Shown: positions 5,428 through 14,268, numbered from the stretch's first letter. The stretch: 64,000 nucleotides of DNA from Gemmatimonadaceae bacterium (GCA_051859245.1 JBHYGA010000001.1:832001-896000); one strand, 5' to 3'. The notes: generated by a model not told the origin, from the letters alone. Translations and numbers: made by a program.

Positions 5428-6531
5428 ATGACCGATACGCTGACGCTCCGCCGCACTTCGCTTTTCGACGCCCACGTCTCACTTGGCGCGCGCATCGTGC
5501 CGTTTGCTGGATGGGAGATGCCCGTGCAGTACCCGGCCGGTATTTCTGCCGAGCACAAAGCCGTGCGTGAAGCGTGCGGATTGTTTGATGTGAGTCATAT
5601 GGGTGAGGTGATTGTGAGTGGTCCCGACGCGATGGCGTTCGTGAATCACGTCACCAGCAACGATGTGGCGGCGCTCGCTGTGGGCCAGATCCAGTACAGC
5701 ACCTTGCTGACCGAGCGCGGCACGATCGTTGATGATCTGCTCGTGTATCGATATCCCGATCATCTGTTTCTGGTGATCAACGCCGGCAATCGCGATGCGG
5801 ATATCGCGCATTTGCGCGCGCACATTGGCGCGTTCGATTGCACCATGGAAGACGTGTCGGATTCGTACGCACTGCTGGCGGTGCAGGGGCCCAATGCGCC
5901 GGCGATCGTGCAGCGTTTCACGAGCACACCACTCGGTGAGATGAAGTACTACCGGTTTGCCGACGGCGAAGTGGCCGGCGTGCCGGCGATTATTTCGCGC
6001 ACGGGTTACACCGGTGAGTTGGGTTTTGAACTCTACGTGCCGTGGGAGCAGGCGCGCACTGTGTGGGATGCGCTGATGGCCACGGGCGAGGTCACGCCGT
6101 GCGGACTTGGCGCGCGCGATACGCTGCGTCTTGAAGCCGGCATGGCGTTGTACGGCCATGAACTCAACATTGACACCACACCACTCGAAGCCGGACTCGC
6201 GTGGCTGGTGAAGCTCGGCAAGACCGATTTTCTCGGCAAGGATGTGCTCGTGCATCAGCACACCGATGGGTTGGATCGCAAGCTTGTTGGCTTCACGTTT
6301 GACGAGCGCGCGATTCCGCGCAGCGGGATGCCGGTGTGGTACGGCGACCTCCCGTCAGGCACTGTGTGCAGTGGCACCATGAGTCCCACGCTTGGGATGC
6401 CGATTGGCACCTGTTATTTGCCGGCCGCCGCTGCGGTTGAAGGAACCGTGTTTGCGGTGGACATTCGCGGCAAGCATGTACCGGCGCGCGTGGTGCCACT
6501 GCCATTCTACAAGCGGGCGGGCAAGGCGTGA
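5428..6531 (+). CDS. gcvT: Glycine cleavage system aminomethyltransferase T
   Basis: [44 protein letters not shown]. Confidence 0.97.
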
Positions 6532-8174
6532 GTCGAAGTACCTCGCGTGCGTCGCGCGTAACAGGCGACGGCGTTCCCCTGGGCAGTGTGGCCATTCTGC
6601 TCACCGACGTGGAACCGGCGGTGCGTTTGAACGCCGTGCTCGAAGCACGCGGTGTGCAGGTCACGCTCATCTCGCCACTCGATGATGTGCGCGGCACGCT
6701 GCGTCGCGCGCGTCCCTCGGTGCTGGTGCTCACCGGTGCATTGCTTGACGGTGCGAACGTGGCCCTGGTGCAGGAACAGCTGTGGCACGACGTGAGTGTC
6801 ATGGGACTCACCGATGCGGTCAACGACGAGTTGCTCGACAAGTTGCGCGCGGTGGGCTACGCCGAGCTTGTGTCGAAGCCCGTGGTGGTGGAGGAGCTGG
6901 CCGACAGTGTGCAGCGCCGCCTGGAGCGTCGTGCACTGGCCGATGTCACCGGTCTGGTGGGAGAATCGGAAGCGATTCGCGAAGTGCTCGTGAAAATCGA
7001 ACAGATCGCGCCGGTCACGAGCACCGTGCTCATTGAAGGTGAGAGCGGCACGGGCAAGGAACTCGTGGCGCGTGCGATCCACCGGTTGGGTTCACGTCGC
7101 AGCAAGCCGTTCATTGCGGTGAATGTTGGTGCGTTGCCGGAAACGCTGCTGGAGAGTGAACTCTTTGGCCACGAGAAGGGCTCGTTCACAGGTGCGGCCG
7201 AACGTCGGCTGGGTCGTTTTGAGCTGGCTGACACCGGCACGTTGTTTCTTGATGAGATCGGCGAAGTGCCGAGCAGCACGCAGGTGAAGTTGTTGCGCGT
7301 GCTCGAAGAGCGAGAGGTCACGCGTGTTGGAGGTGGACAGCCGATTGCGGTAGACGTGCGTGTAGTAGCGGCTACGAATCGTCCGCTGCGTGAGCACGTG
7401 GAGGAAGGCGCGTTTCGCGCGGACCTGTACTATCGCTTGAACGTGCTGCGCATTTATCTGCCGCCGCTGCGCGAGCGTCGTGAGGACATTCCGGTGCTGG
7501 TGCGCCGGTTCGTGCGCGAGTTCAGCGCGCTGCACGATCGTCCGTTTCACGGCATCTCGGGCGACGCGCTGGCGCTGCTGGTTTCGTATCCGTGGCCGGG
7601 CAATGTGCGTGAGCTGCGCAACCTTGTGGAGAGCATGGTCGTGCTGGCGCCGGGGCACGAAATCGGCGCGGATGACATTCCGCGGGCGATTCGTGACGCG
7701 GGTGGTCGGCGACTGTTACCGGTGCCCGTTGGCCCTGTGGTGCGCGAGGGTGAACGTGCGCAGGGGCGCGAGCTGGAGTTCATTGTGCGCTCGCTTGTGG
7801 AGCTGAAGTTACAGGTCGAGGAACTTCGTCGTCGAATGGATGTCGAGGTGCGCTCTCCCAGTGTGGGTTGGATGGGCGAAGTGCATCCGGTCGCAGGGCT
7901 GGCTGCGTCTCCGGTAGGTGACGTGTGGGTGGGAAGTGGGGTGATGGGCGGAATTCCGCCGCGTGACCAGGCAACGCCACCGAGCAGCATTTCGGTTGGT
8001 CCGGAAACCACGATGGCGGAAATCGAGCGTCAGGCGATCGAGGCCATGTTGCGTCAAACGGGTGGAAACCGCCGAAAGGCGGCAGATTTGCTCGGGATTG
8101 GGGAGCGGACGCTGTATCGAAAACTCCGGGAATATCAGGGAGACGGCATTCCGCCGGATCTCGACGTCACGTGA
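6528..8174 (+). CDS. Sigma-54-dependent enhancer-binding protein with degenerate receiver domain and Fis-type HTH
   Basis: GESGTGKE, ESELFGHEKGSFTGA, LFLDEIGE, WPGNVRELRN, NRRKAADLLGIGERTLYRKL; GTG start overlaps the gcvT stop. Confidence 0.93.
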   Translation: MSRSTSRASRVTGDGVPLGSVAILLTDVEPAVRLNAVLEARGVQVTLISPLDDVRGTLRRARPSVLVLTGALLDGANVALVQEQLWHDVSVMGLTDAVNDELLDKLRAVGYAELVSKPVVVEELADSVQRRLERRALADVTGLVGESEAIREVLVKIEQIAPVTSTVLIEGESGTGKELVARAIHRLGSRRSKPFIAVNVGALPETLLESELFGHEKGSFTGAAERRLGRFELADTGTLFLDEIGEVPSSTQVKLLRVLEEREVTRVGGGQPIAVDVRVVAATNRPLREHVEEGAFRADLYYRLNVLRIYLPPLRERREDIPVLVRRFVREFSALHDRPFHGISGDALALLVSYPWPGNVRELRNLVESMVVLAPGHEIGADDIPRAIRDAGGRRLLPVPVGPVVREGERAQGRELEFIVRSLVELKLQVEELRRRMDVEVRSPSVGWMGEVHPVAGLAASPVGDVWVGSGVMGGIPPRDQATPPSSISVGPETTMAEIERQAIEAMLRQTGGNRRKAADLLGIGERTLYRKLREYQGDGIPPDLDVT

Positions 8175-8350
8175 GGTTTGGGGGGATACGTCCATGTGTT
8201 ACAAGATCTTGGACGATTCCCACTATTGCTCAAACGTGACTTTCCCCACATATTGGCCCCGTCGTCAAGCGACCCCTGCTGTTTCGCAGATGGTCGTGCC
8301 GGCGGGATTCTTCCTTCGTTCGATATTCGGGGAGCAGACCGCAGGCTTAT

Positions 8351-9352
8351 GTGGACCGCACTCCGGAGACCGATCTGTCCATTCCAGCGAATCTGGGCCT
8401 TCCCTTGACGTCGAGCGGCAATCCCAGCCTTGGGCAGTCGGGCACGATCGCGGGCAGTGTATTGCCGCTTCGTCGGGCAGAGGAGTTGATCGTCACGTTA
8501 CCGGGGGTCCTGAGTGTACGGATCGTGCCGAACGAGACGGGAGCGATCGACGAAGTCCACGTGCTGACCACAGATGCGGTTCCCCCAAAGAACACCGTTC
8601 GCAATATCGAAAGCGCGCTGATGGCGCAGCTCGGGTTGCGGGTGAATCATCGAAAGATTTCGGTCGCGACCACGCTGGACGCGCCTCGGGCGTCGGATCA
8701 GGCGTCGGAGCGGGTGGTCGAACGTTCGGCCGACCGAGTGGCCTCGCGTCAGCCCGAGACCACGTATATGCCGCCTGGCAGCGCGCCGCTGGCGGGAGCG
8801 CCGCTGGCAGGGGCGCCGCTGGCGAGTGCGCCGGTTGGCAGCTCGCCGATGGGCGATGCGCCTCTGCGAGAAGCCCCGGCCATGCGCAACGCACCGATGC
8901 GCGCCGGTTCTCGGCTGTCGGAAGCGACGCAGGCGTTAGCTGCCGCCGAAGGGCGCCGGGTGCTGATCTTCGAGGATGTGGAAGTTCGCCGGTCGCGTTC
9001 CAAGGGTGTGCTGTGCCGCGTGACGCTGAGCCGCGAGCAGTCGCACTACGTGGGCGAGTCGGAAGGACAGGAATCAGAGCGCAGCCGGGTGGAGTTGGCG
9101 GCGCGTGCGGCATTGTCAGCGATTTCACAGGCGGCCTCGGCCTCCGCGGGCGGGGAGCGCTCGGTGGCGCTCGAGGGGGCCAAGCTGATGGACGCGTTCG
9201 ACCGCGAGTTTGTGTTTGTGAGTGTGACCGCTCGCATCGGTCGCGAAATGGTGGTGCTGACCGGGAGCTGCGAGGTACGCGAGAGCGCCGAAACATCGGC
9301 GGTGCTGGCCGTACTGGACGCGACGAATCGTTGGCTGCATTTGGAGCGCTGA
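8351..9352 (+). CDS. Hypothetical two-domain protein with low-complexity linker; C-terminal domain resembles the LeuA-type regulatory (allosteric) fold
   Basis: Coding-like ORF with ordered N-domain (LPGVLSVRIV..IDEVHVLT..VRNIESAL..RKISVA) and C-domain ending TGSCEVRESAETSAVLAVLDATNR; start uncertain. Confidence 0.75.
   Translation: MDRTPETDLSIPANLGLPLTSSGNPSLGQSGTIAGSVLPLRRAEELIVTLPGVLSVRIVPNETGAIDEVHVLTTDAVPPKNTVRNIESALMAQLGLRVNHRKISVATTLDAPRASDQASERVVERSADRVASRQPETTYMPPGSAPLAGAPLAGAPLASAPVGSSPMGDAPLREAPAMRNAPMRAGSRLSEATQALAAAEGRRVLIFEDVEVRRSRSKGVLCRVTLSREQSHYVGESEGQESERSRVELAARAALSAISQAASASAGGERSVALEGAKLMDAFDREFVFVSVTARIGREMVVLTGSCEVRESAETSAVLAVLDATNRWLHLER
8783..8872 (+). repeat. Degenerate 15-bp tandem repeat (about 6 units) encoding APLAG/APLAS/APVGS/SPMGD/APLRE pentapeptides
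   Basis: gcgccgctggcggga gcgccgctggcaggg gcgccgctggcgagt gcgccggttggcagc tcgccgatgggcgat gcgcctctgcgagaa. Confidence 0.8.
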
Positions 9353-9381
9353 TCAGGGACTCGTCTCGTGATCAGCTTTTT
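9348..9381 (+). terminator. Intrinsic terminator overlapping the stop codon of the hypothetical gene
   Basis: GCTGATCA-GGGACTCGTCTCG-TGATCAGC followed by TTTTT. Confidence 0.75.
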
Positions 9382-9430
9382 ATTCCTTCCTTCCCATTTG
9401 TCTAACGACAACCTCAAAAACGTCCCCCGT

Positions 9431-9522
9431 CGCCCAGTAGAGCGGAGCTGAGCGGGCAGGCCATCAGGTAGTTGAGCGGAGCCAACCTAGCACCAGCATG
9501 CGGAGACCATCGGTCCTGCGTG
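9431..9522 (+). ncRNA. Candidate structured leader RNA with two GAGCGGAGC-loop hairpins and a third hairpin
   Basis: CGCCCAG/CTGAGCG stem (one mismatch) around 9438-9447; TAGTTG/CAACCTA stem around AGCGGAGC; CATGCGG-A-GACC-ATC-GGTC-CTGCGTG hairpin; GAGCGGAGC at 9440-9448 and 9474-9482. Confidence 0.5.
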
Positions 9523-9550
9523 ACTACGCATACAGGGAGGTGACGTTGCA

Positions 9551-9622
9551 ATGGAATTCATGGCCCAGCTCGTGAGTGCTATGTGGTCGTTCGTTTTGGC
9601 CGACGCGAAGACCTGGTCTTGA
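9551..9622 (+). CDS. Unannotated 23-aa hydrophobic peptide MEFMAQLVSAMWSFVLADAKTWS
   Basis: ATG preceded by AGGGAGGTGA (9534-9543), a very strong SD in a window where many genes lack one; below the ORF-track length cut-off; directly upstream of the HD-GYP gene. Confidence 0.7.
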   Translation: MEFMAQLVSAMWSFVLADAKTWS

Positions 9623-9666
9623 TCCTGATCTGACGCGGTGGGGGACTCCTTTTCTTAATCATCGAA

Positions 9667-10989
9667 ATGCCGCCGAGAGTACTTGCGTACGTCTACGTAG
9701 TCGCTGCGACAGCCATTATGGCTGCCGCGGCGCTTTGGCGTCGCGATCCCTCGTTGAACTTCGATTATTTGCTTGGCTCTTTGGGGCTTGTCGTCCTTGG
9801 AGCGTACACCGCAGTCGCCAAGTACAAGACTAGCCGGAGTGCAGATGGTGAGGTGTCGTTCATTCCTTACCTAACGGCGATCATGATCTATCCGAATTGG
9901 TCCACAATCGGGTTGATTGGAGTCGCAGTCGGTGCAACCGAGCTGTCGAAGAAGAAACACTTTGTTAAGCGCCTCTTTAACACTTCACAGTTTCTTCTAG
10001 CGTCCTCTACGGCGATGTTTGTCTACCTCGGTTTGGGAGGTGTTCCGCTCGCCGAGGATAGTAGCTTCAAAATGTTCGCGCATACGGGAGGCGTGGTTTC
10101 ATTCCTCCTTGTCAACTCCTTCGCGGTTGCTGCGGTAATCGCGATCGCTGAGAAGAAGAATGTGTTTCGTCTCTTCTTCGACGCGAACCGCTCGTCATTT
10201 CTGTACGATCTGTTTGCTATTCCTGGTGTTTACGGAGTCGCGCGCGCGTTCACCGACTGGAGCTGGTGGGGGTTGCTCGTCACGGTGGCTTTGCTTTATG
10301 GCGTTCGGCTGATGTATCAGGCAAAGTTGCAGCTAGAGAATACCAACAGGGAGCTTCTTGAGCTCTTCGTGCACACCGTTGAATTCCGAGATCCTTACAC
10401 TTCAGGCCACTCGCAGCGAGTGGCTCGGATATCGAAGATCATCGCGCGCGCAATAGGCCTGCCAAATCGAGAAGTGGAACGCATCGGGAAAGCTGCACTG
10501 CTTCACGACGTTGGGAAGATCCACGAGATTTTTGCACCGATTCTTAGCAAACCCGGTAAGCTTACGCCGGAAGAGCGCGCGATCATGGAGTTGCATCCAG
10601 TGAAGTCGGCCGAACTCGTTTCAAAGCTGAGCGACTTCAACAACATCATTGACGACGTTCGGCATCATCACGAGAACTTCGACGGAACTGGGTACCCAGA
10701 CCGGCTCGTTGGGAAGTCCATTCCGCTCGGATCGCGGATCATCATGTTCGCAGATACGATCGATGCGATGACCACCGATCGACCGTACAGAAAGGCACTC
10801 GGCCCTGAGGCGGTTAAGGCCGAGTTGGTTCGGTGCCGGGGGCAGCAGTTTGACCCGGACATTTGTGATGCCCTCCTTGCGAGCAACGACTACCATCTGC
10901 TTTTCGGTGGCGTCGAGGGAGTTTCCGTTCCGTCGCTGACGCAGATCCTTGATCGCGTCCGAAAGTCGCGAACGCCAGCCACAGTGTAG
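9667..10989 (+). CDS. Membrane-bound HD-GYP domain phosphodiesterase (likely c-di-GMP)
   Basis: About 7 hydrophobic segments in the first 220 aa; RDPYTSGHSQRVA, LLHDVGK, HHHENFDGTGYP, ADTIDAMTTDRPYRKAL. Confidence 0.92.
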   Translation: MPPRVLAYVYVVAATAIMAAAALWRRDPSLNFDYLLGSLGLVVLGAYTAVAKYKTSRSADGEVSFIPYLTAIMIYPNWSTIGLIGVAVGATELSKKKHFVKRLFNTSQFLLASSTAMFVYLGLGGVPLAEDSSFKMFAHTGGVVSFLLVNSFAVAAVIAIAEKKNVFRLFFDANRSSFLYDLFAIPGVYGVARAFTDWSWWGLLVTVALLYGVRLMYQAKLQLENTNRELLELFVHTVEFRDPYTSGHSQRVARISKIIARAIGLPNREVERIGKAALLHDVGKIHEIFAPILSKPGKLTPEERAIMELHPVKSAELVSKLSDFNNIIDDVRHHHENFDGTGYPDRLVGKSIPLGSRIIMFADTIDAMTTDRPYRKALGPEAVKAELVRCRGQQFDPDICDALLASNDYHLLFGGVEGVSVPSLTQILDRVRKSRTPATV

Positions 10990-11010
10990 CAACGTTGGTT
11001 CCTCTGAGCA

Positions 11011-14000
11011 CTACTTCTGCGGTCTAGTGCGCAACGATACGGTCGCTGCGTTCGCGATTTCGAGGAGCTCGTGTTGAAGTACATCGAATACGAAGCCGGG
11101 TTGCGAAAGCTCCCTGCGGTCCACTCCGAAGTAGCGGGCGCAAAGCTCACGAGCGAGCTCCAACTTGCCCGACTCGTGAAGCTTCTGCATCACCGAGGCC
11201 GCTAGGAAGTCCTGTCCTGAATACCTACCGTAGGACGTCAGGTAGTGCGTCGCCCGCTCCAACAGAGCCTGGAATGTGGTCGCGTCTGCCACCACGTCTT
11301 CAGCATGAAGACAGAGAGCTGTACAGTATAGGGTCAGCCTCGTTGGCTTCGTCAACCCAGCGGTTGCGAATGCCAGAGCCTCCTGTGACGAAACTAGCTT
11401 CCCGAATGACAGATGTTCGAGTCGAAGGTTAAACAGTCGAACCCAAGTCTCGCCCTCATGCTCCGGAAGCTGTCCGTGCAGAGCAAATGATCTGCCTAAG
11501 TCGATTGCTCGTCCTCGATCGGCTCCTTCGAAGGCTATGACGGTTTTGCGCCACAAAATGTCTAGTAGCCTCGATGAGCTTTCCTGCACTTGTTGAGATT
11601 TCTCCGCTGTGTTTAGGCAGTCCATCGCGCTGACAACGTCACCGCAGACTCGATGCACAAGCGAGGCGTTGTTGAGTAGTCGAAGCCCCGAAAGGGTCTG
11701 CGCATGTAACTCGCGATCCTTGTGAACCGCAACCGCGAGTTTATTGGCTGACTGCAAATCTCCGAAAATTGTGTTGAACTGCATCATTGGCTCGATGACG
11801 TCTTCTTCCTTCACAACACCCGTACGATGCGTCTCGGCCAACATTGAATACGCCCGAAGTCCAATATCTGCCTCGAAGAGATCCGAGGCAGCTGTCAATG
11901 CGACGCGAATGGCACGGATTTGAGTGACGCCATCTCCTTCCGCTCCGGCAGCGATGTCTAATGCTGCGAGTGCGCTCTCCCGACCTGTGCGCTGTAAGTC
12001 TGTGTGTACTGAGGCTTCGATCTGTGACAGTTTCTGCGCAATCGACAGTTGCGTAGCGCCTTCACCATTGCCCAGAAGTTTGTCAGTCGCTCGAGCGACG
12101 AGCCGCCAACTGAAAGCACGTTCTGCAGAAACGACCATTGCATTTAGTATGCTTGTTCGCGCTGAAGCTTCGGAACAGAGATTCAACGCTGACTCCAAAA
12201 ATCTTAGGATGCCGTCGCCCATTCCCGAGTTTGAGAGCCGGTCTGAGTGTTCTAGGCACATGCTCACGAACAAGCTTGCGTCCCCGGATTCCAAAGCAAG
12301 CGATAAGGATCGAAAGGCGTCCTCTACTGAAAATATCGTTCGCAGTCTATTGCTCAGCTGAGTGGCGAGGTCGCGACGGAGCATCTGTAGCTCTGTACTG
12401 GTGAGCTCTGAATGGACAACTCGACGCACTTCGTCGTGACAGGAAATTTCCCCGGCCGCTCCCTCGTGAAGAAGTCCAGCGTTCATCAAGGCTCGAATCG
12501 CCTTGAGGCGATTGGCCAAACCAAACCCAAATGAATCGTCTAGGTCCATTGAGGTGGCTTTTCCGCCGAGGACCGCGGCGACCGCGACCATGAACCTTTC
12601 TTCAGGCTGCAGTCGGCGAATCTGACGAGCAAGAGTCGCCGCGAGAGAGGCGCTCGACCCGCCAGTGAGGCCCGTAACCAGATGTTCGCGGGCTAGTGCG
12701 ATTACGCTCAGCGGAGTGCTGTCGCTGGATACGGCGATGAGAGTGGCCGATTTCGAATCGAGGCGCCGACCTGTCGGCGTAGAAACAAGTGATGCGATCT
12801 CAACACATGCCTTGTGCGACAATTTTTGCAGAAGCACTGTGGTCTGATGACCGTCTTGCGAATCCCCCTCACGTTCTCCAGCCTGATCTTCTCGTTTCGT
12901 AAATACAAAAAGCAGTCGCTCGTGTTGAAATAGATCGAGCATCTCCAGAATGACTTCCGAGGAGTGCACATCCGCTCGCTGCAGATCGTCGATAAGCACT
13001 ATTAGCGGCGTTTCCTCGGCGATCGCAGCTATGAGCTCATACAAGCATTCGTGAAGGGGAGTCTTCGAGTTGGCAAGCCAAGGCGATTCACCTGGGGGAA
13101 GTTCGACTTCTGAGCCTGCGCACTTGCGAAGGACAGTTAACGCCTCTGGAGTGCATCCGAGGGCGCCTGGGAGTCGGAGAAGGCTGCGCACCAAATGCGC
13201 AAGAGTTCCGAACTTCACCGTACTGTCAAAATGAGACACCCTCACCAAACACCGCGCGAACCCAAGTATCATCGCACGACGCGTCACCTCGTACGCCAAC
13301 TCGGTCTTGCCAATGCCCGCCGGGCCGAGCAATCGCACGATGCGCGGTTCGCCTTGCATGGCGGATAGTGTGAGTGCGTCGAGCTTCTGCAATTCGGCAT
13401 CGCGACCAACAAGTCGCGGCGTGGCGGCTTCGTCGTGCGATAAGCGCACGGCGCGTTCGATGCGCTGCTGCGCCTTCTCGACACGACGGCCAAGATCCGT
13501 GCCGCCCACGCCCGTCTCGCGCACGTATGACTCCAGCAACGACGATGCGTTGACTCGACTCCCAAGCATGGCCACCGCTTCGGCCACGATCAACGTGGCG
13601 TCTTCGTTGAAGGGGTCAAACTCCAGCACGGTACGCGCCCAGCGCTCAGCTTCCTCCCACTCACCGCGATCGCGAAGGCGGCGCAACTCCGGCACAAGAA
13701 TGCGACGCACGTCAGCGTGATAGAGCTCGCGCTGCTGCTCCACCCAACGGCGCAGCGCAGAATAGCTCGGCAGCCAACCGGCGAACAGATGACCAAAGGG
13801 CTCCTGACCTTTGAGCACATCACGGTCGAACAACAGTGCCGTTCGATCCAGCGCAAAGCACGGCAGAAACGTGGTGCGCAGCATTCGCACCGACGCGCGG
13901 CTGCTTTCAATCTCCACGCCGAGTTGACGCAGCTTGTACACGTGCTGACGCAGCGAGTGACGCGCCGATGCATCGTCCATGCCTGGCCACACGAGTTCCA

Positions 14001-14268
14001 TCAGGCTCTCGCGGGCGATCACGTGCTCATGCGACATGCCCACCACCACGAGCAGCGAAAACATGCGCTCGGCGCCCGGCGCGATGACGCCACCACCGCC
14101 AATGTGAATCTCCGCCGTGCCGAGCGTGCGAAAGAGCACCTGCCCGCGTTCAAGCGCGGGCAGCGGCAGCGGTTCAGGCGCGTAGAAGGATTCCAGAGGC
14201 ATCTCATCCAGGGCGAGCGCCGAAGCGGTCGAAATCATTGGCTTCTCCAGGTGGCGGGTAGACGTCAT
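11011..14268 (-). CDS. AfsR/SARP-like regulator: winged-helix + BTAD + P-loop ATPase + helical C-terminal region
   Basis: RESLMELVWP..ARHSLRQHVYKLR, VLEFDPFNEDA, LVGRDAEL, GPAGIGKT, LIDDLQRAD; start 14268 or 14238. Confidence 0.8.
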   Translation of the reverse strand: MTSTRHLEKPMISTASALALDEMPLESFYAPEPLPLPALERGQVLFRTLGTAEIHIGGGGVIAPGAERMFSLLVVVGMSHEHVIARESLMELVWPGMDDASARHSLRQHVYKLRQLGVEIESSRASVRMLRTTFLPCFALDRTALLFDRDVLKGQEPFGHLFAGWLPSYSALRRWVEQQRELYHADVRRILVPELRRLRDRGEWEEAERWARTVLEFDPFNEDATLIVAEAVAMLGSRVNASSLLESYVRETGVGGTDLGRRVEKAQQRIERAVRLSHDEAATPRLVGRDAELQKLDALTLSAMQGEPRIVRLLGPAGIGKTELAYEVTRRAMILGFARCLVRVSHFDSTVKFGTLAHLVRSLLRLPGALGCTPEALTVLRKCAGSEVELPPGESPWLANSKTPLHECLYELIAAIAEETPLIVLIDDLQRADVHSSEVILEMLDLFQHERLLFVFTKREDQAGEREGDSQDGHQTTVLLQKLSHKACVEIASLVSTPTGRRLDSKSATLIAVSSDSTPLSVIALAREHLVTGLTGGSSASLAATLARQIRRLQPEERFMVAVAAVLGGKATSMDLDDSFGFGLANRLKAIRALMNAGLLHEGAAGEISCHDEVRRVVHSELTSTELQMLRRDLATQLSNRLRTIFSVEDAFRSLSLALESGDASLFVSMCLEHSDRLSNSGMGDGILRFLESALNLCSEASARTSILNAMVVSAERAFSWRLVARATDKLLGNGEGATQLSIAQKLSQIEASVHTDLQRTGRESALAALDIAAGAEGDGVTQIRAIRVALTAASDLFEADIGLRAYSMLAETHRTGVVKEEDVIEPMMQFNTIFGDLQSANKLAVAVHKDRELHAQTLSGLRLLNNASLVHRVCGDVVSAMDCLNTAEKSQQVQESSSRLLDILWRKTVIAFEGADRGRAIDLGRSFALHGQLPEHEGETWVRLFNLRLEHLSFGKLVSSQEALAFATAGLTKPTRLTLYCTALCLHAEDVVADATTFQALLERATHYLTSYGRYSGQDFLAASVMQKLHESGKLELARELCARYFGVDRRELSQPGFVFDVLQHELLEIANAATVSLRTRPQK

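Follow-up and report, generated by a model that had tools for sequence, protein, structure and literature searches.

Gene context and layout of the intergenic region

The window, i.e. the whole analysed stretch of 64,000 nucleotides from a Gemmatimonadaceae bacterium (GCA_051859245.1 JBHYGA010000001.1:832001-896000), contains at positions 8351-9352 (+) an open reading frame for a lineage-specific hypothetical protein of 333 amino acids (termed HYP in the following) and at 9667-10989 (+) the gene of an HD-GYP phosphodiesterase-like membrane protein of 440 amino acids, whose MASE9 and HD-GYP domains were assigned by Pfam (HD_5, 1.5e-34; HD, 1e-18; MASE9, 5.1e-06) and whose translation contains the HHHENFDGTGYP motif. 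The spacer of 314 nt between both genes harbors a structured RNA of about 225 nt (approximately 9419-9646) that encloses a tiny gene and precedes the HD-GYP gene; the latter has no evident Shine-Dalgarno (SD) sequence of its own in the window. The wider neighborhood comprises a sigma-54-dependent response regulator upstream of HYP (6528-8174) and a 1085-aa AAA_16/Trans_reg_C regulator past the HD-GYP gene (11011-14268, -); inspection by eye of the region 5' of HYP revealed no convincing sigma-54 promoter.

HYP has no Pfam match, and its relatives in the Atlas are exclusively Gemmatimonadota hypotheticals. In the AF2 model (mean pLDDT of 76.7), residues 34-108 are ferredoxin-like (Z about 8) and residues 203-330 resemble the regulatory domain of LeuA/citramalate synthase (Z 9.3, rmsd 3.4, 110 residues aligned), while the likeness to dsRBD, PUR and Rad52 folds is weak (Z 6.5-7). 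According to this model, the predicted fold looks like small-molecule-binding regulatory domains and would include no known RNA-binding fold. A HYP homologue was located upstream of the element in 26/30, 20/20, 7/8 and 44/45 loci of the successive searches (in five of the six misses, a contig end truncates the locus), and it is this linkage alone that makes HYP a candidate RNA binder. The HYP profile matched 153 of 201 genomes of the phylum; many genomes of families f2 and f4 hold two to five matches each, and two f4 loci (L242 and L243) carry HYP paralogues without element, short reading frame or HD-GYP gene, either in tandem or beside unrelated genes. In consequence, HYP is to be regarded as a multi-copy family and not as a dedicated partner.

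The element is bracketed by the two strands of a long-range clamp helix, P1, that covaries strongly (5' strand GUCCCCCGUCGC, 9422-9433, +; 3' strand GCGGUGGGGGAC, 9635-9646, +). The 5' strand is followed by three repeat-containing blocks: block A is the first copy of the 9-mer GAGCGGAGC (9440-9448, +), block B is GAGCGGGCAGGCC (9450-9462, +), and block C consists of the second GAGCGGAGC copy and CAACCU (9474-9488, +). Downstream of them lies the hairpin P4 (9497-9508 : 9512-9522, +) with a conserved ACU directly after it (9523-9525). Block C forms the 5', anti-SD strand of helix P3 (9476-9488 : 9534-9546, +), which in the window contains tandem G.A/A.G and A.A/A.G mismatches and a G.U pair at its outer end; the 3' strand of P3 (9534-9546, +) includes the SD sequence GGGAGGUGA (9535-9543) of a short open reading frame (sORF) of 23 amino acids, MEFMAQLVSAMWSFVLADAKTWS (9551-9622, +), which possesses a very strong SD of its own. 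A pyrimidine/U-rich tract, UCCUUUUCUUAA (9647-9658, +), is positioned directly 3' of P1. P1, P3 and P4 are all contained in the minimum free energy (MFE) fold of 9419-9648; the latter is not significantly more stable than those of shuffled sequences (z -1.33), and the same holds for the fold of 9400-9560 on either strand (z -0.64 for the plus and +0.32 for the minus strand).

Several minor features were observed around the element. At the HYP stop codon, a 7-bp inverted repeat with a 13-nt loop (9349-9355 : 9369-9375) is followed by CTTTTT and looks like a weak terminator dividing HYP from the element (9349-9381); simple scans of 9000-10000 flagged no promoter or terminator, including this repeat. 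A second inverted repeat, TTGTC-TAAC-GACAA, is located at 9398-9411, 11 nt 5' of P1, and in the closest genus its position is taken by TTCGTC...GACGAA, ATCGTC...GACGAT or TCGTCT...AGACGA; it might act as a hairpin in the RNA or, over the promoter, as a palindromic operator. In several genera of family f1 (L012, L014, L015, L051 and others), a CCTATAGGA / TAGAGGAAAA motif precedes the C-run 10-20 nt before P1, and GAAAGGA precedes it in f2 and f3; these motifs may be a promoter element. Two further reading frames overlap the element, one of 85 aa at 9576-9833 (+), which has no Pfam match, and one of 45 aa at 9414-9551 (-); both are most likely spurious.

Transcription of the stretch is supported by its presence in RNA libraries. 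In two lake-water metatranscriptome runs of one study, approximately 5-6% of the words of 8300-11000 were present, and the contigs placed on the window span 9419-9645, three of them with zero differences (9419-9589, 9420-9463 and 9434-9530). One contig covers 9584-9645 and continues with adapter-like letters; its end at 9645 gives a hint of a discrete transcript end at the foot of P1. A contig of 884 nt from a relative links the 3' end of HYP to the element and stops shortly past the G-rich block. For the flanking genes, the two runs yielded no contigs over most of 8755-9209 and 9665-10483, an absence that, with contig data, cannot show silence. The contigs demonstrate presence in RNA libraries; level, strand and true ends lie beyond them, and carry-over of DNA is possible.

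Occurrence in the phylum and conserved RNA structure

The element was recovered by protein searches and, independently, by two covariance models: R1 was built from the 5'-domain alignment A2 (26 sequences), and the 52 loci aligned with it constitute alignment A3; R2 was built from f2/f3 loci. The search with the HD-GYP protein in 101 genomes of f1 yielded 30 loci, of which the 26 with HYP upstream were analysed (contig ends truncate the remaining four); three of these 26 rows (L022, L023, L031) stem from genomes flagged as unpublished, and no claim depends solely on them. In the order sample of 151 genomes, R1 matched 49/62 genomes of f1, 16/61 of f2 and 7/27 of f3, and in the class sample R2 matched 23/28 of f2, 5/35 of f8 and 3/31 of f5, these loci likewise showing the cassette. 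Among the matches found by the RNA models only, HYP was present upstream in 44/45 and the HD-GYP gene downstream in 42/45, all misses being contig-end cuts. In the window's own genome, R1 detected a single copy; a dispersed genome-wide repeat was dismissed, as the 314-nt spacer has no second copy there. The cassette was inspected in nine families (f1, f2, f3, f5, f6, f7, f8, f12 and f13), two of which (f12 and f13) belong to other classes of the phylum. A loose DNA pattern search returned at least 120 matches, mostly by chance in GC-rich genomes, and 4 of 80 loci were true according to R1. The named records confirmed by R1 comprise Gemmatimonadetes/Gemmatimonadaceae MAGs and one contig with an Acidobacteriaceae label; by these named matches, the host phylum of the cassette is Gemmatimonadota. 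The Acidobacteriaceae-labelled contig (L168, 2.9 kb) holds the element at an R1 score of 45.8 bits together with an HD-GYP gene; this short contig may be mis-binned. Rfam 15 gave no match for 8800-10200 of the window at E<=10 (c-di-GMP-I/II, ydaO and guanidine-II included) and none at E<=1 for six relatives from five families, and no description of the element was found in the accessible portions of the literature on Gemmatimonadetes structured RNAs, HD-GYP riboswitches and MASE9.

The f1 spacers have a length of 286-477 nt and share a common order: a C-rich block, (G/U)AGCGRAGC, UGAGCGGGCAGGCC, a variable linker and GAGCGGAGCCAACC are succeeded by a variable hairpin ending in GACU, AGGGAGGUGACGC, the start codon and the short ORF; at the 3' end, the C-rich block finds its complement in a G-rich block, which is followed by a pyrimidine-rich tract and the HD-GYP start. 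P1 was recovered by RNAduplex in 26/26 loci and subsequently in 58/58 distinct loci: the duplex energies of its cognate strands (mean of -36.4 kcal/mol) were lower than those of non-cognate strands (-29.6 kcal/mol; 0 of 5000 permutations as low), and the inner pairs show three to six pair types. In other classes, the P1 sequence is wholly different (GGCUGACACYCG / CGRGUGUCAGCC) at the same location. RNAalifold predicted pairing of the second 9-mer block with the SD block and of the C-run with the G-run, based on the full alignment A1 as well as on the 5'-domain alignment A2. In A3, 94.9% of the cells of P3 and P4 together were paired versus 86.3% after shuffling. P4 displays changes on both sides in four of the five counted pairs (e.g. 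AU 28 / GC 23), and A9523 after it is invariant in the 26 relatives of A2. Covariation of P3 within f1 is confined to its distal pair (UA 25, CG 3, GU 3, AU 2, GC 2; 17 of 52 unpaired), since the helix is otherwise mostly invariant; the SD block GG.GGUGA is identical in 26/26 loci and in 40/40 sequences. Between P1 and P3, no conserved helices were found and the length varies by 8-35 nt. In the 12 nt past the G-run, from which the tract was measured, the 43 f1 loci contain on average 5.35 T versus 2.36 expected and 9.5 pyrimidines; the tract includes at least five T in 28/43 of them, is imperfect and becomes weaker in f2.

Outside f1, the pairing of the initiation region is re-registered yet retained. 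The f2/f3 cassette has a longer P1, an extra hairpin and sORFs ending in W-stop; its block C is GAGCGGAGCGUC, the GAGCGUC of which exactly complements the GACGCUC 3' of the SD, and in the favored register the SD core is situated in a junction and not in the helix. In f12, f13, f6 and f7 the architecture recurs downstream of HYP, but the sequence of P1 is another one altogether (one example is GGCUGACACUCGAA, paired with UUCGAGUGUCAGCC immediately 3' of the sORF). These loci contain AGCGGAGCGG twice, a loop of GUAGCGGA, UCGCUC-AUG after the SD, and sORFs that end in NAW, VVW and similar. The 3' flank of the initiation region and its partner change together: CGC:GCG in f1, GACGCUC:GAGCGUC in f2/f3, GCUCC:GGAGC in f6 and UCGCUCAU:AUGAGCGA in f13. 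SD and sORF were identified in 16 of 17 representative loci, and in most of the 16 an AGCG block is part of the best pairing partner of the region where the sORF is initiated; in the two f7 loci, this region pairs mainly via the C-run.

Regarding the repeated words, both copies of GAGCGGAGC noticed in a previous, sequence-only reading of the locus were confirmed, without any other in the window, as were GAGCGGGC at 9450-9457 and GCGGAG at 9500-9505. The number of GAGCGGAGC copies alone is unremarkable (2 versus 1.25 expected; two or more in 33 of 100 shuffles), and close direct 9-mer repeats are frequent in the window (47 versus 18.9 in simulations); the threefold GAGCGG inside 45 nt is window-unique (about 0.005 expected). 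The repeat was judged real because it is conserved in the relatives: AG/AG/AGCG of the first two blocks is invariant among the 26 sequences of A2, with A9441, G9442, A9446 and G9447 (AG...AG only, the spacer varies) in block A and AGCG in block B, and the AGCG.AGC of the second GAGCGGAGC copy is invariant in the same 26 relatives and also in 40/40 sequences from three families. The AG dinucleotides of blocks A and B follow a 5-nt period with variable spacers, and additional (U/C)AG triplets are present 2-3 nt upstream of block C. Across the families, three to seven AGCG-type repeats precede the SD, and both GAGCGGAGC copies belong among them; at the RNA level, the repeated word constitutes a real feature of a non-coding stretch and is conserved deeply. 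A conserved pairing partner of block A and of GAGCGGGC/block B was looked for and none was found. Two candidates were rejected: pairing between block A and the sORF's 3' half showed no signal, 4881 of 5000 permutations being as low, and P2 (block B with sORF codons 4-8), although seen in the MFE fold, lacks a covariation signal (duplex energies of -17.4 kcal/mol for cognate versus -16.9 kcal/mol for non-cognate strands; 468 of 5000 permutations).

The sequence-only reading had interpreted the same words differently: two or three hairpins would present identical GAGCGGAGC loops on different stems to a dimeric RNA-binding protein, in analogy to ANTAR targets. The stems can be drawn in the window (stem 1, CGCCCAG at 9431-9437 with CTGAGCG at 9448-9454 and one C.A mismatch; stem 2, TAGTTG at 9469-9474 with CAACCTA at 9483-9489 and one bulged C), the genome does contain an ANTAR-domain gene (PF03861, 72.3 bits, contig 6, unlinked to the locus), and the display of one AGCG copy in a conserved hairpin loop does apply to other families ((Y)UAGCGRR in general; (R)UAGCGRR in the P4 loop of f2/f3), although not to this window. 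In the relatives, however, these stems were not retained: in A2, 57.0% of the cells were paired versus a shuffled mean of 55.2%, and 44 of 500 column shuffles scored as high; helix 1 was paired in 64.8% and helix 2 in 48.3% of the cells, and the proposed pair 16-58 was unpaired in 25 of the 26 sequences. Moreover, stem 1 overlaps with the covarying P1, the second 9-mer pairs with the SD region of the sORF (a frame missing from that reading), and the loops comprise 10 and 8 nt instead of six, so that the ANTAR analogy fails on hairpin conservation as well as on loop size. Neither the GAGCGGAGC hairpins nor their shared-loop architecture are kept in homologues, and the 9426-9522 motif has no match in Rfam 15. 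The third hairpin persists as the covarying P4, but its GCGGAG sits in the stem and is not conserved. Judged from the sequence comparison, the ANTAR-like twin-hairpin model appears already contradicted and is highly improbable.

The short reading frame and its distance to P1

A sORF of 15-35 codons was present in 26/26 f1 loci, with its start 13-16 nt past the first base of the SD block and with tryptophan as penultimate residue in 24/26. In the tally of 72 loci, 63 frames were called and 62 remained valid after L073 was dropped (wrong strand); seven of the nine misses are contig-end-cut loci, the remaining two being L068 and L088. In L088 (f3), the frame misses the usual TGG-stop and continues, which could be a frameshift or an extended variant. 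Three results show that the sORF is coding and under purifying selection: The entropy of the codon positions in the window and ten close relatives amounts to 0.56/0.34/0.78, single-nucleotide codon differences are synonymous in 238 and non-synonymous in 160 cases, and among 25 ORFs of 23 aa the alternative frames contain stops in 22 and 20. The frame ends in W-x-stop or W-stop; the hydrophobic core and the C-terminal Trp of the peptide are retained across 8/9 families. No family was found for the peptides in NCBIfam. The sORF is a gene of 23 aa that current annotation would miss.

The 3' strand of P1 starts between -3 and +11 nt relative to the end of the sORF stop in 58/58 loci, and in several loci the stop codon itself is situated within P1. 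The distance from the sORF stop to the HD-GYP start is 22-44 nt in 25/26 f1 loci (209 nt in L036), and the 3' strand of P1 ends 10-25 nt 5' of the HD-GYP start in most of them. P1 does not cover the HD-GYP start everywhere, given that its G-run ends 22 nt before the HD-GYP ATG in the window and that the start lies approximately 60 nt past P1 in f13.

Possible regulatory logic and comparison with known systems

The anatomy of the element, i.e. P1, P4, the complementarity of block C to the SD and the selected, Trp-ending sORF, is well supported. With regard to function, the geometry suggests that masking by the AGCG block gates translation of the sORF and that the terminating ribosome opens P1 and thereby couples HD-GYP expression to it, a proposal to which roughly even chances are given. 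In the ground state, both initiation regions would be shut, P3 masking the sORF SD and P1 covering the approach to the HD-GYP start. If block C were withheld from the SD, the sORF would be translated, the ribosome at its stop codon would melt P1, and HD-GYP might then be expressed via reinitiation and/or read-through of P1 and the U-rich tract. The sensor surface would be provided by the repeats left unpaired, namely the first 9-mer and block B, with a protein, a metabolite or the nascent peptide as candidate signals. Two features expected of such coupling are present: an upstream sORF with its own SD that is selected to stay open, and a helix within reach of a ribosome at the sORF stop in 58/58 loci. 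On the other hand, the peptide is conserved beyond the needs of a mere ribosome-positioning ORF, and this counts against the coupling model. In a more far-reaching version, which is considered unlikely, the element would represent a riboregulator class in which AGCG repeats read by a metabolite or by HYP gate an arrest-type, Trp-terminated leader peptide, and the paused ribosome opens the clamp over a range of about 200 nt and switches HD-GYP on. If true, one element would unite riboswitch-like sensing with nascent-peptide control and long-range fold-back inhibition, and would constitute a new phylum-wide riboregulator class for cyclic-di-GMP turnover.

One alternative is a free-standing, stable small mRNA or dual-function sRNA that makes the hydrophobic, Trp-ended 23-aa peptide with HD-GYP uncoupled; the peptide would partner or modulate the MASE9 sensor domain, P1 would only protect the ends and P3 only tune synthesis. 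The purifying selection, the core and C-terminal Trp kept in 8/9 families and the RNA-library contigs that span P1 to P1 only, one of them ending at 9645, agree with it. The abutment of the sORF stop and the P1 3' strand in 58/58 loci, the HD-GYP start 22-44 nt past that stop in 25/26 f1 loci, and an HD-GYP gene that usually has neither an SD of its own nor much room for a promoter speak against it; in addition, the peptide has no family match and 23 aa are short for a membrane span. The probability of this alternative is rated as low. A somewhat lower probability is assigned to a new small-molecule riboswitch, the pocket of which would be built by the AGCG repeats, the post-P4 ACU and the junctions, and in which ligand binding would set the masking of the SD by block C; given the HD-GYP gene, a conceivable ligand is a cyclic dinucleotide or what results from its breakdown. 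Phylum-wide conservation, covarying helices around invariant unpaired nucleotides, the exclusive tie to one gene class and an expression platform by SD sequestration speak for it, and the internal repeats could form a pseudo-symmetric pocket as in the c-di-AMP and guanidine-II riboswitches. Yet there are no conserved helices between P1 and P3, where the length varies by 8-35 nt, the repeat number fluctuates between three and seven, no Rfam riboswitch matches, and the repeat that masks the SD differs among the families, which would be unusual in a fixed aptamer.

A further alternative is a protein-bound or protein-titrating RNA, whose 5-nt-period (G/U)AG-NN sites are recognized by a multimeric protein with TRAP-like logic, possibly HYP, which would relay a ligand signal through its LeuA-regulatory-like domain. 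The invariant AG with variable spacers, the extra (U/C)AG triplets 2-3 nt before block C, the linkage of HYP to the element and its two regulatory-type domains, as predicted by the model, fit such a function. It is nevertheless regarded as rather improbable: there is no TRAP gene (PF02081 reached at best 14.4 bits in the genome, below the cut-off of 21.3 bits), no RNA-binding fold is clearly related to that of HYP, paralogues of HYP exist at loci that lack the cassette (L242, L243), and the triplets number only 5-7. In leaders bound by CsrA, GGA motifs are conserved both at the SD and further upstream. The genome does encode CsrA, and block C as well as the SD retain their GGA, but the GGA needed for CsrA is not retained in block A, where GGA and GAA alternate; among the loop copies, GAA and GAG occur.

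Soils and lakes harbor abundant Gemmatimonadota, the regulatory RNAs of which are, to our knowledge, almost unstudied. The element shows clear covariation, is associated with just one gene class, that of an HD-GYP second-messenger phosphodiesterase, and encloses a conserved micro-ORF; it offers a testable system for the control of c-di-GMP degradation after transcription start, for what a 5-nt-period AGCG repeat recognizes and for whether a Trp-ended leader peptide acts at termination.

Among known systems, the proposed coupling resembles the leader-peptide attenuators pyrBI and tnaC and the fold-back of hok/mok: a short ORF with a strong SD precedes the regulated gene, a helix is placed for disruption by the ribosome at the ORF end, long-range 5'-3' pairing shuts the hok message, and the tnaC peptide likewise has conserved residues at its C-terminus. 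In contrast to these systems, the element described here has a clamp over a range of about 200 nt instead of a local terminator hairpin, no regulatory codon run, a sORF SD that is masked by a conserved repeat block, and membership in a new, phylum-specific element family; no antisense RNA or toxin context is evident. TRAP-regulated leaders contain 9-11 (G/U)AG repeats with a spacing of 2-3 nt. The element shares with TRAP and HutP leaders NAG triplets with 2-3 variable nt of spacing that partly overlap the SD-controlling strand, but it comprises only 5-7 triplets in two clusters (three plus two AG units of 5-nt period and one or two looser ones, below the classical TRAP number), and its binding protein is a candidate only. 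ANTAR target RNAs consist of two adjacent short hairpins with hexanucleotide loops in which A1 and G4 are conserved; a repeated short motif in a leader is common to both, whereas conserved twin hairpins and hexaloops are absent here. The c-di-GMP-I/II riboswitches often precede GGDEF, EAL or HD-GYP genes, and with these SD-sequestering RNAs the element has in common the position in the leader of a cyclic-di-GMP-type gene, covarying helices, invariant unpaired nucleotides and an anti-SD strand. It differs from them in that no Rfam model matches, that no conserved helices were found in its presumed sensor part, and that the masked SD belongs to the sORF and not to the enzyme gene.
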